DNA of 64,000 nt. Source: Octopus vulgaris. Lineage: Eukaryota. Made by a program: the position numbers and the translations under genes. Shown one piece after another: positions 3,081 through 62,320 of this stretch; the first letter of the stretch is position 1; every line of letters begins with the position of its first letter. Location: NCBI GenBank assembly GCA_951406725.2, contig OX597815.1, forward strand, positions 200,508,001 to 200,572,000, read 5' to 3'. The notes below the pieces were generated by a model. That model was not told where the DNA came from. It did not search any database and saw nothing but the letters and a program-made list of their open reading frames with translations.

Positions 3081-4164
3081 TATATATATATATATATATA
3101 TGCACACATATAAATATAAACATACATGCGTGCATACATACATACAATTACCACAGGGCCTTGTTTGACACGTTGTTCCAGCGTCCTTTTTATTTTCAAA
3201 TTCGGTCACGGTTTATGGAAATCTACATATTTTTCATGATCTGGCAATGATTAGAGCCTTTAGTTCATTCGCCAGTAACTCCACACTCTTCATCCTTGTT
3301 ACAAGAATTGACAAAAAGAGGGCAACTGAATTCTTAAATCCTATAGTTTGTCATAGAACACTCCTGGATCATCGAGAATCAGTTAGAATTCTCTGAAAGT
3401 TTCCTGATTATGTTTTGGTAAAAATTAATATTTAAAGTTACATAAGGGATTATCTGTGAAAATTATGGTGTGGCTGGATACCGCGGATGATTCAATTAGT
3501 CTCAACATATTTCACCGAAACTACTAAATTAGTGCATGTGAGGCAGTGATGTTAATTATCCTAGACTACTTTCCACGATATTATATTGTCTATGTATATA
3601 TATATATATATTTAATATTTTGCTTACATTCACTCTAGGAACATTAGCCCTGCAGAGCTGAGGATTTTTGTGAGATTCAGTCATACACACCATCATTTCT
3701 TGAAATAAACATCTGATCTCCTGTTCCTGTTTTTTTCTTTCTATTATTTTTTACCGTACACACAGAACATGTAAGCATGGTCGCTTGGACTGAATAAGAA
3801 TGGGAATTCTTTAAGTTAATTCATGAAAAGGTGATTCGGTGTGTCATATTTTATTGGTGATACGAGTCATATAAGATTCATGATGTGCTATTGACTGTGT
3901 AAATTAGTGTTGGATCATGGCCTCCCATATATGTTAACACTCCATAAAAGGAAGCAGCACTAATATATATTTCATGTTTCACCTTTTTCTGGTAACTCAT
4001 ATATATTTCACTTATTTTTCCCTTGATTTACTGGAAATACTTATATATATATATGCATTTTACAAAGTAAAATTATATAGAATTGGAAGGGATTTCGTTT
4101 ACATTGGCTGTGTTGTATTACCAAATAATATTGAAATGATTTTAATTATTTTTATATGCACATA

Positions 4165-4618
4165 TCAGAAATATTAAATTTCTAAATATCTCATAGAGAT
4201 ATGTACGGTGGTGGGGCGATAGAGTGGTTGTATACTGTCAACTTAACGTGACAGTCCTGTAAGGGAATTACACCACCACTGTTTAGCCCTAGGAAGCATC
4301 GACGCTTCCTGTCGGCCTTGACACATTTCCTGTGTCCTTATATATTTACGAAGGGGAGACAAACACCCCCACCAGCTAGGCCTGCATCTAGAAACACGCA
4401 TGTTTCAGTGACTTTGCCCATCATCGGTCTAAGACCCTGAAATATGCGTGTCTCTAGATGCAGGCTTAGCTCTTGGGGGTATTTGTCTCCCCTTCGTAAA
4501 TATATAAGGACACAGGAAATATGTCAAGGCCGACAGGAAGCGTCGATGCTTCCTAGGGCTAAACAGCGGTGGTGTAATTCCCTTACTGTCACGTTAAGTT
4601 GACAGTATACAACCACTA
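4165..4618. mobile_element. Fold-back (inverted) copy of the HHR-bearing retrozyme-like family R1
   Basis: Arms ~4222-4408 and ~4436-4617 are near-perfect reverse complements and match 28511-28896. Minus-strand HHR TAGA-CCGATGA-..-GAAAC-ATGCGT-GTT-TCTAGA at ~4387-4432. Confidence 0.85.
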
Positions 4619-4913
4619 TATGCACATAGTTCGTGTAGAACATGTCAAATACGTATTTGATTTTACTTGGGCAGAACCTCATCTAAAATTATTGCAAGAT
4701 AATCCTGGTAAATTCTTTCCAAAGCTAGTAGCATATGAACGAATTTGCTATGAGTCTACAGGTTTGAAACAGTAATTTTGATCTCTTGAGCTTTCTCAAG
4801 TAACCTTATCCTTCAGATGTAAATACCAGCACAAAAAAAACTGTGGGGGAAATGAAAACATCACGAATAAATTAGAGAGGTCCTTAATGTTTTTGATTTT
4901 CTTTTATGAAAGA

Positions 4914-22190: not shown

Positions 22191-22963
22191 GGTAAGAAAG
22201 TTGGTATGTGAAAGCACGTGGTTGAATATATAGAAAATAGTTAAAAGTGAAAAACTACAGAAGGTTGTTTTAAAAGGTTAAGAAATATATAGACCGAACT
22301 GTGCAACATGTCCAAACCTGCTAGAAGGATCAGAATTCCTCTTCAAAGAGGGACAGAAATTCAAGATCAAATCTAATTTTACTTGTGCCTCTGAAAACAT
22401 AATTTATGTCATAAAATGCTCGGGCTGCCACCAAGACTACGTGGGATCCACGGGACTATCACTCAGACGTAGATGCACACTGCATCGACAACAGATTGCA
22501 TTCCCAGAATACAGAATGATACCCTTTAGTGAGCACATTGAGAAATGCGCAAAGCAACTACTACCACAATTTTTAATCATTCCATTCTACCAATGTGCTA
22601 TCGGAACACCAACACAAATTAGACTAAACAAGGAAACATTCTTCATTGAAAAATACAAGCCCAAGCTTAACCATTCCAACATACTTATACAGAGAAACAC
22701 TATCCAAAAGAAAGGCAAAAAATTTTAAGCGATTTTCTCCCTTACACCGGAAGAAATCACTTATTATCTAGATCTCCGCTCAACGTAAACATAACGATTT
22801 AAGAAATTTGAAAAGCTGAACGCGAAACCGGTCATTTCTTCTAAACTATGTCATTGTATGAAAAAAATTTATAACATTCTTCAGACATATTGACTCAAAT
22901 ATATATCATTAACCTTTTAAAACAAGCCTTCTGTAGTTTTTTCACTTTTTACTATGTTATCTA

Positions 22964-28354: not shown

Positions 28355-28408
28355 CTCTCTCCCCTCCTTCTCCCTCTCTCTCTCTATATATATATACATA
28401 TATGTATG

Positions 28409-28489
<81 letters not shown>

Positions 28490-28510
28490 ACAGGACTGTC
28501 TCTATATATA

Positions 28511-28896
28511 CAGGACTGTCACGTTAAGTTGACAGTATAGAACCACTCTATCGCTCCACCACCGTACATATCTCTATGAGATATTTAGAAATTTAATATT
28601 TCTGATTTTGGTGATCAGTGAAAAAACTTCACTGAAAATATATATATTTCCGAATTCTAGACAGATACCTTCAGCTAGCAGGTCTCTGCACCTCTAGACC
28701 GATGATGGGCAAAGACCCTGAAACATGCGTGTCTCTAGATGCAGGCCTAGCTGTTGGGTGGTATTTGTCTCCCCTTCGTAAATATATAAATGTGTCGAGG
28801 CCGACAGGAAGCGTCGATGCTTCCTAGGGCTAAACAGCGGTGTGGAAATTCCCTTACAGGACTATCACATTATGTTGACAGTATAGAACCACTCTA
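28511..28896 (+). mobile_element. Retrozyme-like element family R1: ~346-nt monomer with 40-nt terminal direct repeat
   Basis: caggactgtcacgttaagttgacagtatagaaccactcta at 28511-28550 recurs, slightly diverged, at 28857-28896. Non-coding, (TA)n on both sides, internal HHR. Confidence 0.8.
28672..28753 (+). ncRNA. Type-I hammerhead ribozyme with extended stem I (U4C core)
   Basis: CAGCTAG..CTGCA-cc-TCTAGA-CCGATGA-tGGG caaaga CCCt-GAAAC-A TGCG T-GTC-TCTAGA-TGCAG..CTAGCTG; predicted cut after 28733. Confidence 0.75.
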
Positions 28897-28920
28897 TATA
28901 TATATATATGATTATACTTC

Positions 28921-29560
28921 TAATAATATCAGTGGCTTAGCATGCGTAAAAAATAAACTCATAACGTTAAAAATTATCAATTAATAATTAAGTGGTATCG
29001 GCACGTTAACTATAGTAGTCAAAATGACCAAACCACAATTTTTCACTTAAACAAATAAGTGAAAGTCGGCAAATGAATAAAAATCCTAAAACCCCATAAC
29101 AATGATGAAAACATCTTACTTTGTCTTCAGCGAGTCTTACTGATCCCAGGGTTAAAGAGATTATTCATCTTACCAATTAGATGAGTATATAGGCAAATTT
29201 TAAAAAGGTGATCGAAGTGAATAAAAATTATTTAAATGTACATGAGGATATTTTGATAATAATTTCAGTGGCTTAATATGCGTAAAAACCGATAGCAGTA
29301 AAAAATTATCAATTGCTAATTAAGAGTAAAACGAGTAGTACCGGCATGCTAAATATAGCAGTCAAAATAACCAAACCACAAACCGCTGAAGATGAAGTAA
29401 TACTTTTTCTCAAAGATCGAAATCACGGTGAAACGGATATGCCTGGCTTTTACAGACTTCGATTATTTTCGTCATTGGTGCGGGGTTTTAGGCATTTTAT
29501 TCATTTGCCCGCTTTCACCTTTGTGCATTATTGAAAATTTGCGGTTTGTTCATTTTAACT
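28921..29560. repeat. TA-flanked element with a diverged direct repeat and an inverted repeat
   Basis: 28921-29037 is similar to 29257-29381 (direct); 29012-29112 is inverted relative to 29465-29555. Confidence 0.65.
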
Positions 29561-29561
29561 G

Positions 29562-29596
<35 letters not shown>

Positions 29597-30236: not shown

Positions 30237-32050
30237 GATAGACAGGTAGATAGATATAGATATACACACACGCACGCACACACATACATACACACGCACA
30301 CAAACTGATGCACATATATATTTATCAGTACTTTCTATAGGTTGATATTGACACACATTATTTGGGGAAATTTGTTTCCATATGCTATGCGTGAAATTCG
30401 ACCCCCGGGTCATGAGTTTTCAGTCTGATTAAATTATTTTGTATGCCAGAAAATAACAAGCATAAATACAAATTACTAATTCTTTAGCAAACTCTGTTTT
30501 ATTTTACGAACATTGAAGTCAACAAGTTGATGCGTGACGTTCCTTCTCGAATGTCTAATATTTGCAAATATAATGACCTTTTGTAAATATTATTCACACC
30601 GTATACTTTGTATCTTGTTATCCGTCTACAATATTTCCCACATAAATATACATTAGACTAAATGTGTATGGAAAGCTTATATTTCCAGTAGAATATCATT
30701 TTGGGAGGACTATTATATTTTAGAAAATAGCGAATAAAAGTACAAATGGGGACATCATTGGTGAGGTCATTTGTGAATATGAATGGTGTTTACGAAATGA
30801 TTAGTGTTCGAGTTTTGACGACCATCATACTGGCTTCAAATTTTGGCACAAGTGCAGAAAGTTTGGGGAGGAGAGGAGGTCGATTACATCGAATCCATTG
30901 TTCAGCATGTACTTATTTTATCGGTACCTAATGGATGAAGGGCAAAGTCGACGTACGCGAAATTTGAACTCAGAATGTAAAAACGGACGAATTGCTGCTA
31001 AGCATTTTGCCCGGTGTGCGGACTCCAGTAACACACTCATTTGCATACAGCCAATCAGAGCTCACCTTTACCTTCTGGTCAAGTTAACAAACACACTCTA
31101 CCAAGTAAACTAAAGACGAAGAACGGTGTAGTAATTACCGATCGCCAATCTATGCCTGATTTTAGAAGGAGACAGATACTTAGATAGATTTGCGTCTACA
31201 CCAATTATGGCATATTTTTGGTCCCCCTATAGTAAAGGTGTAGATGGAAAAATCTGGGTAGAAGGTGCTATGCTAGAAACCATCTCACCTTACTGTTTTA
31301 CAATGTAAGCAACCACACAATTAAATACACAGATGCAGCCATGTTTGCAATCAGAACAAGAACATTAGGCATGGATAGCTTATCGAAAATGGATAGTTTA
31401 TCATCTCAAGATGACTATATTTTGTAGGTATATTGCACCTCATAAAATTATTGACACTTGATAACTTATCTGTAACCGACACGAGATCATGATTGAATAT
31501 GATAAAGTCTAACTATAGCCAGATATTAGAGTACACTATATCTTATTATCTTATTATCTACATATTCACATAGACACCAATACGTACATGTACATATATA
31601 CACACATATCTATCAATCAATCTATCTATTTATGTGTCTATATGTGTGCACTTATACAAATATATGGTTTGAAAACACACACCTGTGCCTAACGGACCCA
31701 ATTAATTTTTGTCCAGTCGAAGCATTCATTCGTTCAGTCAGCAGTCAAAACTAATGTGAAAGATTGTGTTACCCTATATTTTAATGTTTGGTAAATAGTA
31801 ATATCCTACTATTATTTTCGAATAAGTAAATGGAAATTACAGATATACTAATATCCTCATGTTTGTTTTGACTTAGTTGAGTAAATAATAGTTATATACC
31901 AACCAATCATCTTGCGAATAACTCGGTAAATGTGTTACCTATCGCATGTGTAATATCTTTGGAAAAGGGCAGTTTACATTTGCGTTCGTTTCATGACATT
32001 TTAAACATGAATGATATATATGTGTGTGTGTGTGTGTGTGTATATATATA

Positions 32051-32432
32051 CCTCGAGAAAATACTCTACCAGATAACACTCGAGAAATTTGGAAGCACCT
32101 TCTCCACCTATATCCAGAACAACTGGAAAAGATACCTCGATGACTGTTTCATCATCTGGGATAAAAGTATAGAGAAACTTGAGGAAATTAAAATTCTATT
32201 AAATGGAATAAATGATAATATACAATTCACGATGGATCATAACGAAGAAGAATTACCATTTTAGACATCCTCATTAAGAAAACCGGCAACAAAATAGAGA
32301 CAGATATCTACTCTAAACCGACAGACTCCAAACAGTACCTACCCTTTGATTCATACCACCCACGACACACTAGCATAAATGTCCCTTCTTGTTTAGCTAG
32401 AAGGATTTGCACCATAATATCAGACACAGATA
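32051..32432 (+). pseudogene. PLE reverse transcriptase fragment (Neptune-like), one frameshift
   Basis: WKRYLDDCFIIW..IQFTMDH..ELPF/LDILIKK..IETDIYSKPTDSKQYLPFDSYHPRHT..NVPFCLARRICTII; starts directly at (TA)n. Confidence 0.9.
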
Positions 32433-38117: not shown

Positions 38118-38295
38118 TTCTATTTTATCTAATTTCAGCTCACGAGCTGTGGCCATGCTGGGGCACCGCCATTGGAATGCTCACAGCACCTAGGTTTCCC
38201 AAGTGGTCACCCATTTAAGTACTAACTAGGCTCGATGTTGCTTAACTTCGGTGATCGGACGAGAACCAGTGCTTTCAACGTGATATGGCCTAAGC
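38118..38295 (-). mobile_element. 5S rRNA-derived SINE3-like retrocopy (5S part 38177-38295 + LINE-type tail)
   Basis: Minus: GCTTAGGCCATATCACGTTGAAAGCACTGGTTCTCGTCCGATCACCGAAGTTAAGCAACATCGAGCCTAGTTAGTACTTAAATGGGTGACCACTTGGGAAACCTAGGTGCTGTGAGCAT, then GGCGGTGCCCCAGCATGGCCACAGCTCGTGAGCTGAAA. Confidence 0.9.
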
Positions 38296-46650: not shown

Positions 46651-47194
46651 TACAAGTGCACACTCACTTATGCATAGGCAGACATACATTCATAAACACA
46701 TGCACGTGTATGTGTATGTATATATATATGTATATATAAGTATGTATGCATATATATGTATATATTTATTGGTTGTGTGTATGTAAAATGCATCTTATGA
46801 CCATGCGAAATCAAACATGACTATAAACTTGATCTTCCACATTACAGTAGAACAACCATTCCGTTGGCCAGTGTCCAGGTCCCATATAGCTTCAACATAT
46901 ACATACTGATTGCATTAAACATCGTTGTAATAACGGATTTTTGAAGAAGAGATGGCTGAGTCAGTCTTGTATTAGTAATTTCTAAACTTACAATTTTATT
47001 GAAGATGTATTTGCCAAAATCCATCGATCATAAGATGTTTTTTTTCTTTTTTACAAAATGGTAGTAATCTTCCATTTTTCCATACATTGCAAAGCACTTA
47101 TAGAGAATTTTACTGGTTTGTGTTTAGCGCACTTACATTTCCAATTACTGCAACATACCAGCATATACTTATACATATACATATTTACATATAG

Positions 47195-48870
47195 AATTTT
47201 TAATGTTAGGACATCTATTGTGTTTACAATAGATTTGTGTTCGATAACCACAGCAAACATTAGTGAAACAGGGATTTCCGATACGCAATCGCTTACGTTT
47301 CTTCTGTACGGCTACGGGGTTTATACCCCCTATGGTCGGCTTGGATTAAATGGCATCACAGTGCTTTTTCGGAAAGGCCTTGACTTGGAGGTGAATACTG
47401 CCTTGCTCGACTCGGTCAGTAAGATGGTCGTCTTGGACGTAAGCAGCAAAGAAGGCAAGAGTGGGGTTTTCAGACTAGTGACAGCCTATGCTCGAACAGG
47501 AGCTGGACGGCCAGATTTCTTTAGACGTCTAGAGATTTCCTTGGGACATCTCGCTGATTAGTATTATTGGGCGACTGGAATTGCTTCTTAGACACAATCA
47601 AGGATTATGCAGCAACAGCGGATAAGAGGGTCGGGTGCAAAATACTCGCTAACTTCTTCTGGCATTTCCAACTGTATGAAAGGCTACGCTTCGATCACCG
47701 AAATGTACCAATGTGGACGTGGTCAAATCACCGTGGGTGATTCAGATATGGTTTTTATTAGGCCAGCACGCAGGTAGAGTATAATTTGCTCGCATTTTCG
47801 GATTGTTAGGTATTCAGATAATAAACTCAGGACCTTTACAATCAACTTAGGAAAAAGAATCAGACATCGACCTGGTTACTGGAAGATGAACGCGTCCCTC
47901 CCGCCGGCTCGAAAATATTTTAGGGACCAGATTAGTTGTTTACTTAAACAGGAATTGACGGGAGCCATTATCAGCAACAGGTTGTGGGCCTCCTGAAAAA
48001 CGAAATTCAGAAAGGTGTCAGTTAATTTTAGCAGAGAGATTGCTTTAGAAAACAACAGAATAGAAAACAAACTAGTTAGTAACTTAGGAGAAGTACACAA
48101 AAGTGGGACTGTAAATGACGTGCTAGCGGCGAGAATGGCACTGGACTATTTCTTCGATGTAAAACATGAAGGCTGTATTTTCCCAGCTAAGATGCGTGCC
48201 ATGAAACACGAAGCTTCAAAACTCATTGGTTGGTCACGGGTAGTGGAGGCCCAGAATGGAAAAAATCTAGGGTTCACCCTATGACGGACCGCAGTGGCCA
48301 TGTGCACACCGATTCCAAACAGAGGAGCACAGTGTTTCGGTAGTATTTCACCGACCTCTTTTCGAGGAGTGGCATTTTAGTCCCAACGAGCTTTGAGGCT
48401 TATCTCGTGGGTATGCTGCGCCTCTAGGAGAAGAATATCGAGTGCTGCGAGAAGCCGATTGCAGTGGAGGAAGATATCCTGGGGAGCAAGTCACCAGGAT
48501 TAGATTGTCCGCCCTATGAACTATAAGCCAACATGTCCCAGTTATTTGCGCCGGTTTTAGCAGTTGTCTACTTCTCCTAGCGACAAACAGGAAGCATTCC
48601 CAGTCGTTTGAGCCGGTGAGTGGTGATAATGTTGAGAAAAGATCTAAACAAGGAGGATGTGATTGAAAACTTCAGGCCCTTAACTCTACTCAACATTGAG
48701 TTAAAGATTTTAGCTAGGGTACTCGCCAAGAGGCTGGCGCTTGTTATCAGTAATATAGTCGAGGATGCACAAACCTGTGCGATTCCCGGTAGATCTATCC
48801 ACTACAATCTTCACTTCATGCGATACACCGTAGAACGGGCAGGGAATAGATCGGGCTTTGGAGGAATAGA
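47195..48870 (+). pseudogene. Tx1/L1-clade LINE ORF2 remnant (APE endonuclease + N-half of RT)
   Basis: ISETG, GITVLFRK, LVTAYA, LLGDWNC.LD, GYWKMNASL, KSPGLD.P.YELY, ENFRPLTLLNIELKILARVLAKRL, QTCAIPGRSIHYNL; many stops and frameshifts. Confidence 0.9.
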
Positions 48871-61018: not shown

Positions 61019-61020
<2 letters not shown>

Positions 61021-62320
61021 TCCAAACACACACGATCATAAAAGGCAAGAGGCAGCCAAAATCTATGAAAAGTCTCTTAACACAAGCCCGAATACACTCT
61101 TCAACACAGAAGCCGACAGTAAAAAATGTGGAAGACCCAATTGCGGGATATGCGATTATCTAATTGAGGGATCAGAGTTCTCCTTCAAACAGGGACAACG
61201 GTTTACAGTGAAAAGCAACTTCACATGTGCTTCGGAGAACCTAATATACACACTAACCTGCTCTGGGTGTCAAGAGCAGTACATAGGCCAAACAAAAAAT
61301 AGTTTGCGCAAAAGAATGGCCCTGCACAGATCCCAGATAAGAATTCCCCAAAACAGAAAAATAGCTTCCAGCCAACACATAGATACTTGCGCCAACAACA
61401 AAACACCAGGCTTCAGGATTTCCCCCCTCTACCAATTTAGGGACGATACAACCTCGAGACAACGAATAAGTAAAGAAACTCTCTTTATTACAAAATACAG
61501 ACCACTTCTTAACGGGTCTACGACAAACGATTAATACACCTCAGCTTTAGAATAACAGAAATACACACGCAAATATTACATTCCAAAGAATCCATTACAA
61601 ATCAGTCCCAATCACAGCTATAATCCATAACGTGCCAACTTCAAGTCATACAACACCTCACTACTTCCACTCATTCATATTCTCCCTTCTCTTTTTTCTT
61701 CTTCTTCCTCTTCTTCTTCATCATCATCATTATCATCATCATCATCGTCATCATCATCACCATCATCATCATCTTCTCCTTCTCCTTCTCCTTCTTCTTC
61801 TTCTTCATCATCATCATCATCATCAACATCGTCATCTTCTTCTTCTTCTTCTTCGTCTTCTTCTTCTTCTTCTTCTTCTTCTCCTGCTCCACCTTCTACT
61901 TCAACTTTATCACTAATGCTTTTTAGTTTAACTCCTACGCAAATTCCATAAAGAAACCTTTCAATAGAAATATTCTCCTGCTAGCCGTCGCTGACCATTC
62001 AAAATACGACAATCAAGGCACTCCCAAATTTTTCCACCCCTTCCCCTAATCAACCTTCTTCTTCTTCTACCCTACCAAGAATTCACAACGACCTCGAACA
62101 CACAAGTAACAAGAGAGACACAGAAAGGGAGAAACAAGAAAAATGCCACTTATATTTGAACACTATACAAATATTCCTTTAAAAAAACTTTTCTTTTAAT
62201 TTTTCTAAATTTAATTATTTAATCGTTACATTTGAAAAGGTCTCAAAATGACCGAAACCGGTACTGAAATATTCTTTATAAAATTATTTTAGCATTTTCT
62301 ATCTTGACTTGTTTTTTCAT
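61019..62320 (+). mobile_element. 5'-truncated PLE (Neptune-like): linker, Zn-knuckle, GIY-YIG (to 61534), UTR, U3-A8 HHR motif (62225-62270)
   Basis: KRQPKSMKSLLTQA/KCGRPNCGICDYL..KSNFTCASENLIYTLTCSGCQEQYIGQTKNSLRKRMALHRSQI..KETLFITKYRPLLN. TTGAAAA-GGTC tcaaaat GACC-GAAAC-CG-GTA. (TA)n on both sides. Confidence 0.9.

Follow-up and report, generated by a model that had tools for sequence, protein, structure and literature searches.

The window analysed here, 64,000 nt of Octopus vulgaris DNA (GCA_951406725.2, contig OX597815.1, positions 200,508,001 to 200,572,000, forward strand), carries two insertions of a short non-coding hammerhead repeat, the features of which are listed in Table 1. The focal copy has a period of 346 nt, the family a period of 356 nt and a GC content of 0.42, and the longest stop-free frame of the unit is 63 amino acids. 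A sequence-only reading of the locus had described a circularly permuted retrozyme without an ORF and with TA runs on both sides, and both the missing ORF and the TA runs were borne out. The focal copy sits inside these TA repeats, where a target duplication is unreadable. Directly downstream of the unit lies another repeat (28920-29570), composed of direct and inverted segments and unrelated in sequence.

Table 1. Features of the two insertions in the window (+219-231 and similar signed numbers are family coordinates counted from the predicted cut)
Feature	Position	Strand	Remarks
TA microsatellite upstream of insertion	28386-28486		
14-nt duplicate of 5' junction	28487-28500	+	20 nt upstream; read from sequence
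Retrozyme-type insertion L039	28509-28897	+	1.1 units, 5'-truncated; 3' end at site A (+169)
Terminal redundancy, upstream copy (42 nt)	28509-28550	+	39/42 identical to 28855-28896
Site B (+219-231)	28600-28610	+	about 28606, internal here; second fixed 3' end of family
ATCAGT, predicted proximal promoter element	28614-28619	+	-53 here; -58 in 13/20 copies
Long extended stem around hammerhead	28641-28787	+	from folding, z = -6.0
Predicted transcription start and 19-nt LINE target	28667-28685	+	LINE-free here; ACC against family ATC
Type I hammerhead motif	28693-28739	+	predicted cut after 28733
Hammerhead stem I	28693-28698/28734-28739	+	
Hammerhead core CCGAUGA	28699-28705	+	
Hammerhead stem II	28706-28719	+	
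Hammerhead GAAA	28720-28723	+	
Terminal redundancy, downstream copy	28855-28896	+	ends at site A, directly 3' of 9-bp hairpin; AC-rich surroundings
Short TA run downstream of insertion	28897-28910		
Second locus, arm ending at site B	4164-4431	-	hammerhead lacks most of 5' stem I; U17 present
Second locus, inverted arm ending at site A	4431-4620	+	arms back to back
Second locus, 12-nt target duplication	4153-4164 and 4617-4628		

A DNA search of the same genome (2.8 Gb) returned 3064 first-look candidates, of which the best 40 were scored. Two samples were collected by exact match. Sample 1 took all 87 matches to a 31-nt hammerhead core, 86 of which were analysed after one identical duplicate was dropped; sample 2 comprised 76 rows from 70 stretches drawn from the first 100 of 398 matches listed for a 36-nt segment downstream of the cut. 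Median divergence from the family majority sequence is 3.6%, and the family is not very young.

The 5' ends of the copies are scattered, and the 3' ends are confined almost entirely to two sites. In sample 1, 37 of the 86 copies end at site A (+158-170) and 40 at site B (+219-231), with nine elsewhere and none beyond +231. Sample 2 agrees (37/76 at A, 31/76 at B), its two longer rows being upstream passes of read-through copies. The circular permutation of endpoints in the sequence-only reading therefore did not survive, and its junction at 28511, through which the minus-strand copy of the second locus does read, is no more than the 5' truncation point of the window copy. Its expectation of a tandem or circular template did hold, since 18 of the 86 copies are partial tandems, more than 10 nt longer than one period. 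The 346-nt period and terminal repeat are likewise real, but the repeat is not a fixed feature: the overlap varies in length among these 18 copies, which makes the 42-nt repeat of the window copy incidental, and its upstream part would be the product of a second reverse-transcription pass. Tandem organisation with at least two consecutive hammerheads was found in one of 86 copies, a trimer, and not in the window copy. A rolling-circle RNA whose endpoints are permuted at random and whose 40-nt terminal repeat is fixed, moved by the adjacent PLEs, would account for the junction read-through and the terminal redundancy, which are both real, but neither for the 77 of 86 3' ends at two sites nor for the varying overlap; with the neighbouring PLE pieces truncated and unrelated in sequence, we regard this explanation as highly improbable.

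Inverted arms were present in 39 of the 86 rows, 12 of these having one unclassifiable end. The other 27 rows represent 23 insertions (four loci were counted from both arms), in which site A was paired with site B in 21 cases, with one A+A and one B+B (binomial p = 7e-5). Non-simple flank duplications of 8-13 nt were detected in 22 of 86 rows, two of the loci being represented by both arms; shuffled pairs gave 1.7 on average, and a further 24 flank-duplication matches were simple sequence. The 3' flank starts in TA repeats in 29 of 86 rows. The second locus of the window is such a two-armed inverted insertion with A+B pairing, of which the plus arm and the duplication had been missed in the sequence-only reading.

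Fixed 3' ends with an optional tail, 5' truncation, an inverted 5' arm and AT-rich targets are all features of PLE-type insertion. For PLEs, truncated 5' ends, partial tandems, inverted 5' copies and a tail of 30-40 bp have been described (Craig et al., 10.1101/2021.04.23.441226). With a purified Penelope protein, both strands were cut and extended, AT-rich DNA was favoured, and reverse transcription set in at two positions inside the RNA, the interval between them being the tail (Frangieh et al. 2024, PMC11167929). By analogy, sites A and B may be Penelope-type reverse-transcription starts, one for each nicked strand. The unit and PAc, the Penelope/Poseidon PLE of Anolis, have in common two internal starts that define a tail, an AC-rich first start, AT-rich targets and extension of both strands; the tail is about 55 nt in the unit, which is non-coding, against 30-40 in the PAc comparison, and the use of one start per arm, seen for the unit in genomic copies, differs from what is described for PAc (PMC11167929). 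By eye, CAACCAC near the first 3' end is common to the unit and a neighbouring PLE.

A coding parent was sought by tblastn with three PLE-like fragments of the window and by all-against-all comparison of upstream flanks. Neither GIY-YIG nor RT was found directly upstream in any of the 162 sampled rows (0/86 and 0/76), the nearest matches lying 0.6-1.2 kb off, beyond a microsatellite or on the opposite strand. The GIY-YIG at L071 was rejected as coding parent, about 660 nt including a microsatellite lying in between. What precedes the long copies is more of the unit, an inverted arm, unique flank or a LINE, and in no case GIY-YIG, so that the case raised by the sequence-only reading against itself, in which the copies are always the fixed end of a coding PLE, did not occur in 162 rows. 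Descent of the copies from an autonomous coding PLE, as its solo or truncated pseudo-LTRs, with the 356-nt period stemming from a deleted derivative as a minor by-product, would agree with insertion features that are all PLE-like (Craig et al., 10.1101/2021.04.23.441226) and with Xenopus retrozymes that match pLTRs (Li et al., 10.64898/2026.07.22.740005); it is largely refuted for the sampled rows, however, by the lack of any long copy continuing into GIY-YIG, and the unit carries an snRNA-type promoter motif of its own (see below), which leaves it improbable.

The sequence-only reading had assigned mobilisation to the neighbouring PLE machinery. The insertion anatomy upholds a PLE, but not these neighbours, the pieces of which are truncated and of which the family at 22.3 kb has no nucleotide similarity to the unit. 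The GIY-YIG pieces at 22282-22728 and 61019-61534 (Pfam PF01541) are both truncated, and the first scores below the curated cut-off. The family of 22282-22728 is abundant, with at least 150 scored matches at 94-100% identity, and comparison of its 3' region with the unit over 30 loci of this one family revealed no nucleotide similarity (best E 2.1). The comparison, which covered this one PLE family, thus yielded no partner enzyme. The window fragment at 22282-22960 is a 3' fragment of this abundant family with a GIY-YIG end and a hammerhead-like motif without stem II, and among L242-L271 the 3' ends of the family apparently fall at two points some 45 nt from each other. Other PLE-like fragments in the window are a GIY-YIG with a simple-repeat tail (61019-61900), an RT-like piece without Pfam match (31980-32264) and a degenerate GIY-YIG (2267-2496).

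Folding of a 161-nt stretch gave z = -6.0 (0/200 shuffles as stable) and folding of the whole unit z = -7.6 (0/100 shuffles as stable). The "full hammerhead" of the sequence-only reading stands as a type I layout inside a long stem, but its core is a U4C variant, found in 75 of the 86 sample 1 copies, with a U.U pair at the base of stem II, and no Rfam hammerhead match was obtained in 28600-28860 (261 nt, E<=10) or among 150 of the 205 matches listed over the window. The hammerhead fold lies 5.5 kcal/mol above the minimum-energy fold of the monomer. Compensatory changes between subfamilies were observed at pairs 1, 3 and 6 of stem I (3 of 6 bp), which indicates that the hammerhead fold was kept; the covarying copies, 10-11 of 139 hammerhead copies, belong to one sister subfamily and thus represent a single lineage, not many events. 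This sister subfamily (L194, L197, L198, L204, L223) has a canonical CUGAUGA core (U4) along with the covarying stem I, its stem III is a perfect palindrome, and it too is a LINE target; we consider it a better candidate ribozyme for cleavage than the main subfamily. In the main subfamily, the U4C core and the U.U pair suggest that cleavage is probably weak or needs a dimer, and the near-palindromic stem III of the window copy hints at dimeric cleavage as in axolotl HHR_Amex2. U4C considerably lowers in vitro activity, yet viroid infectivity is retained (Perreault et al., PMC3088659), HHR_Amex2, which shares the U.U pair, must be dimeric to cleave well (Cervera and de la Pena 2020, PMC7229834), and 8 of 9 Xenopus retrozyme dimers showed no cleavage (Li et al., 10.64898/2026.07.22.740005).

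A LINE 3' end is joined near position -67 in 6/86 rows of sample 1 and 7/76 of sample 2. In L114 (G000:C2:144684500-144692500) and L077, full-length LINEs lie inside the unit and unit positions -67 to -49 (19 nt) are duplicated, which identifies the unit as the target. The LINE of L114 has Pfam Exo_endo_phos and RVT_1 domains; we take it to be Tx1-like, a label that reflects domain order and motifs rather than a tree. A search with the LINE 3' UTR yielded 158 candidates, of which the best 40 were scored and 30 taken, and in 15 of the 30 the LINE 3' end is followed by this family at the -67 site, within 1 nt, a share biased upward by one pair of segmental duplicates and by a query that came from a unit-targeted copy. 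One LINE end is followed by a different hammerhead repeat (L135), and a related LINE 3' end lies at +1 of a U2 gene (L180). The LINEs (L114, L077, L115-L144) show two 3' UTR types, and related ends stand head-to-head in the LINE's own 3' end (L126, L129, L131). The joined 3' ends might be read as spread of the unit by the LINE, through 3' transduction or SINE-like use of its enzyme, instead of by a PLE. The target duplications in L114 and L077 refute this. The majority of copies, moreover, reach further upstream than -67, and A+B twin arms are not known as a LINE trait; we give this reading very little credence.

ATCAGT occurs at -57 to -61 in 11/12 U2 (L175-L186) and 15/15 U1 loci (L227-L241), the single exception being a LINE-interrupted gene; the 27 loci represent about four distinct promoter types. 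Their upstream regions are otherwise unrelated, and ATCAGT is a usable definition of the proximal element in this genome. The unit contains one ATCAGT; of the 20 copies in which its distance could be measured, 13 have it 58 nt upstream of the LINE site (the chance of its presence in a 5-nt window is about 0.001), and the window copy falls 5 nt short of this spacing. A proximal element about 60 bp upstream, as in snRNA-type Pol II promoters, is thus present as judged by motif position only, and we predict that the unit has a U1/U2-type Pol II promoter with a start 67 nt upstream of the cut. As this promoter lies between site B and the start, it is regenerated only from a tandem or circular template. 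Pol III may instead transcribe the unit, the only T4 run of which is at site B, but the motif matches U1/U2 and not the 8 U6 loci, among 14 taken, from which ATCAGT is absent; many of the U6 loci look like pseudogenes. An internal snRNA-type Pol II promoter in a hammerhead repeat is described for newt satellite 2 (Coats et al. 1994, as cited in PMC2220036), whereas that of the unit is predicted from motif position.

A cleaved linear monomer would leave 5' ends at +1. None of the 76 rows of sample 2 has a 5' end within 5 nt of the cut site and 33 cross it, so such a monomer is not the usual template. Stops at the predicted start (-67), where 5' ends should gather if a single-unit transcript were the template, amount to 7/70, one of them a LINE junction, and 2/19, equal to adjacent windows. 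The lack of a 5'-end pile-up at either point indicates that in most templates no free 5' end could be reached, and the template is thus probably either a long multimer or a circle closed by religation. Within one insertion, repeated passes resemble each other more than they do those of other insertions in 32 of 37 pairs (pooled 7.5% vs 10.2%), and so do the paired arms in 59 of 73 pairs (pooled 7.6% vs 9.8%), although some of these alignments spill into microsatellite; both are as expected from one source RNA. L021/L104 (G000:C27:11590591-11591840) is a three-unit insertion of two variants with one 13-nt target duplication, in which two near-identical units (1.9% apart) differ by about 9.5% from the last unit and the inverted arm. 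A single circle is not its template, and a template switch or a mixed multimer is needed. Assembled contigs of four presumed-RNA runs contain pieces of the family, and two low-depth contigs cross the 28511 junction, as genomic copies do; since contigs carry no information on strand, ends or level, we do not count this as evidence of expression.

The same element could also be mobilised by a PLE from an uncut linear multimer transcribed from a few master arrays, the U4C hammerhead being weak or vestigial and no circle being formed. The U4C core and the unfavourable fold speak for such a template, as does PAc, for which ribozyme cleavage is dispensable for insertion and uncut RNA is the main substrate (PMC11167929), and L021/L104 is simply explained by a heteromeric transcript, both starts lying in the final unit. 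Short multimers, however, predict run-off at the start in many events, and none was seen; long arrays are absent among the 87 core matches and the first 100 of 398 3'-segment matches listed, although the masters may be lost or unassembled; and the stem I covariation shows that the fold was kept. With hammerhead arrays as rare as one in 86, no source array was found. We hold the uncut multimer to be a serious but minority possibility, and put the circle as template at somewhat better than an even chance against a long multimer.

Taken with the ends, arm pairing and duplications observed, it is in our judgement probable that this dispersed, non-coding hammerhead repeat of 356 nt, with its two fixed 3' ends, is a non-LTR retrozyme, that it is transcribed from its own predicted U1/U2-type promoter, and that a Penelope-type RT-endonuclease pastes it in trans from RNA without a free 5' end, for which a circle is likelier than a long multimer. 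The ends, arm pairing and duplications are seen directly in the copies; the enzyme is deduced from them. Pol II would start 67 nt upstream of the cut in a source array and run into the next unit, whereupon two hammerheads, probably acting as a dimer, would release a monomer that, by analogy, would then be ligated. In AT-rich DNA, a PLE protein would nick the two strands with an offset of about 8-13 nt. Reverse transcription would be primed from both nicks, using internal site A for one and site B for the other, to give single 5'-truncated arms or back-to-back A+B arms. The promoter lies outside that first transcript and would be restored when copying goes beyond one round. The window copy would be a 1.1-round product from site A; as it has only one hammerhead, no circle would arise from it alone.

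The metazoan non-LTR retrozymes, especially the mussel 350-390-bp repeats and axolotl Rtz_353 with HHR_Amex2, agree with the unit in size, GC (42%), absence of an ORF, a type I hammerhead, a highly self-paired fold, target duplications >4 bp and, for HHR_Amex2, the U.U pair at the base of helix II (PMC7229834). On the side of the unit, these traits are a small low-GC sequence without ORF (346/356 nt, GC 0.42), duplications of 8-13 nt and a type I hammerhead recognised by motif, fold and stem I covariation, with a variant core. Unlike the retrozymes described there (PMC7229834), the unit occurs mostly as dispersed truncated monomers and inverted twin arms instead of arrays, has a U4C core and two fixed 3' ends, and is known here from DNA sequence alone. 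In its workings the unit thus resembles a non-autonomous PLE, and among the sequence criteria for non-LTR retrozymes that were tested it departs in one alone, tandem organisation being rare here; by these criteria it is a new cephalopod member of that group, and an expected one. Li, Clavereau and Pollet (2026) argued that animal retrozymes are non-autonomous PLE derivatives, from a set of 35 species (31 vertebrates, 3 insects, 1 coral) that contains no mollusc, and counted as "active" those with at least two consecutive hammerheads in tandem; monomer-rich families are common in their data (10.64898/2026.07.22.740005), and the unit is likewise monomer-rich. The PLE link rests there on co-occurrence and pLTR homology, and here on insertion anatomy, without pLTR homology in the one PLE family compared.

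The retrozyme-PLE link, the two reverse-transcription starts, the snRNA-type promoter and Tx1 targeting of repeats thus each have a precedent. In the literature consulted, no cephalopod retrozyme, A+B arm pairing or retrozyme-targeting LINE was found, although Repbase reports or supplements may hold one. The return of animal retrozymes to DNA has so far been inferred from PLE co-occurrence, and the octopus family offers exact coordinates for it: two reverse-transcription starts, the nick offset, a predicted promoter and start, and a predicted template without a free 5' end. The question of circle or multimer is directly testable with the published in vitro PLE assay.

More tentatively, and with doubt prevailing, the family may belong to a three-party system, in which a Penelope enzyme, working from the two nicked strands and from two set starts, writes a ribozyme circle driven by a U1/U2-type promoter into the genome, and a Tx1-like LINE targets the transcription start of the circle gene, as it does U2 +1, borrowing the promoter. 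If this were true, the genomic arms would be a direct record of circRNA-templated twin-primed retrotransposition. Target-specific LINEs of the Tx1 clade include Tx1L in Tx1D, Keno in U2 and Tx1-Mar (PMC4494074). The octopus LINE resembles them as an EN + RT LINE that inserts at one repeat site, and differs from those listed in that its target is the predicted start of a hammerhead repeat. Targeting of a ribozyme-repeat start would add a target class for Tx1-like elements. Elsewhere in the window, an open frame at 47034-47561 looks, by eye, like the endonuclease part of a LINE of this kind, and a 5S rRNA copy lies on the minus strand at 38178-38295 (95 bits vs a gathering score of 38).
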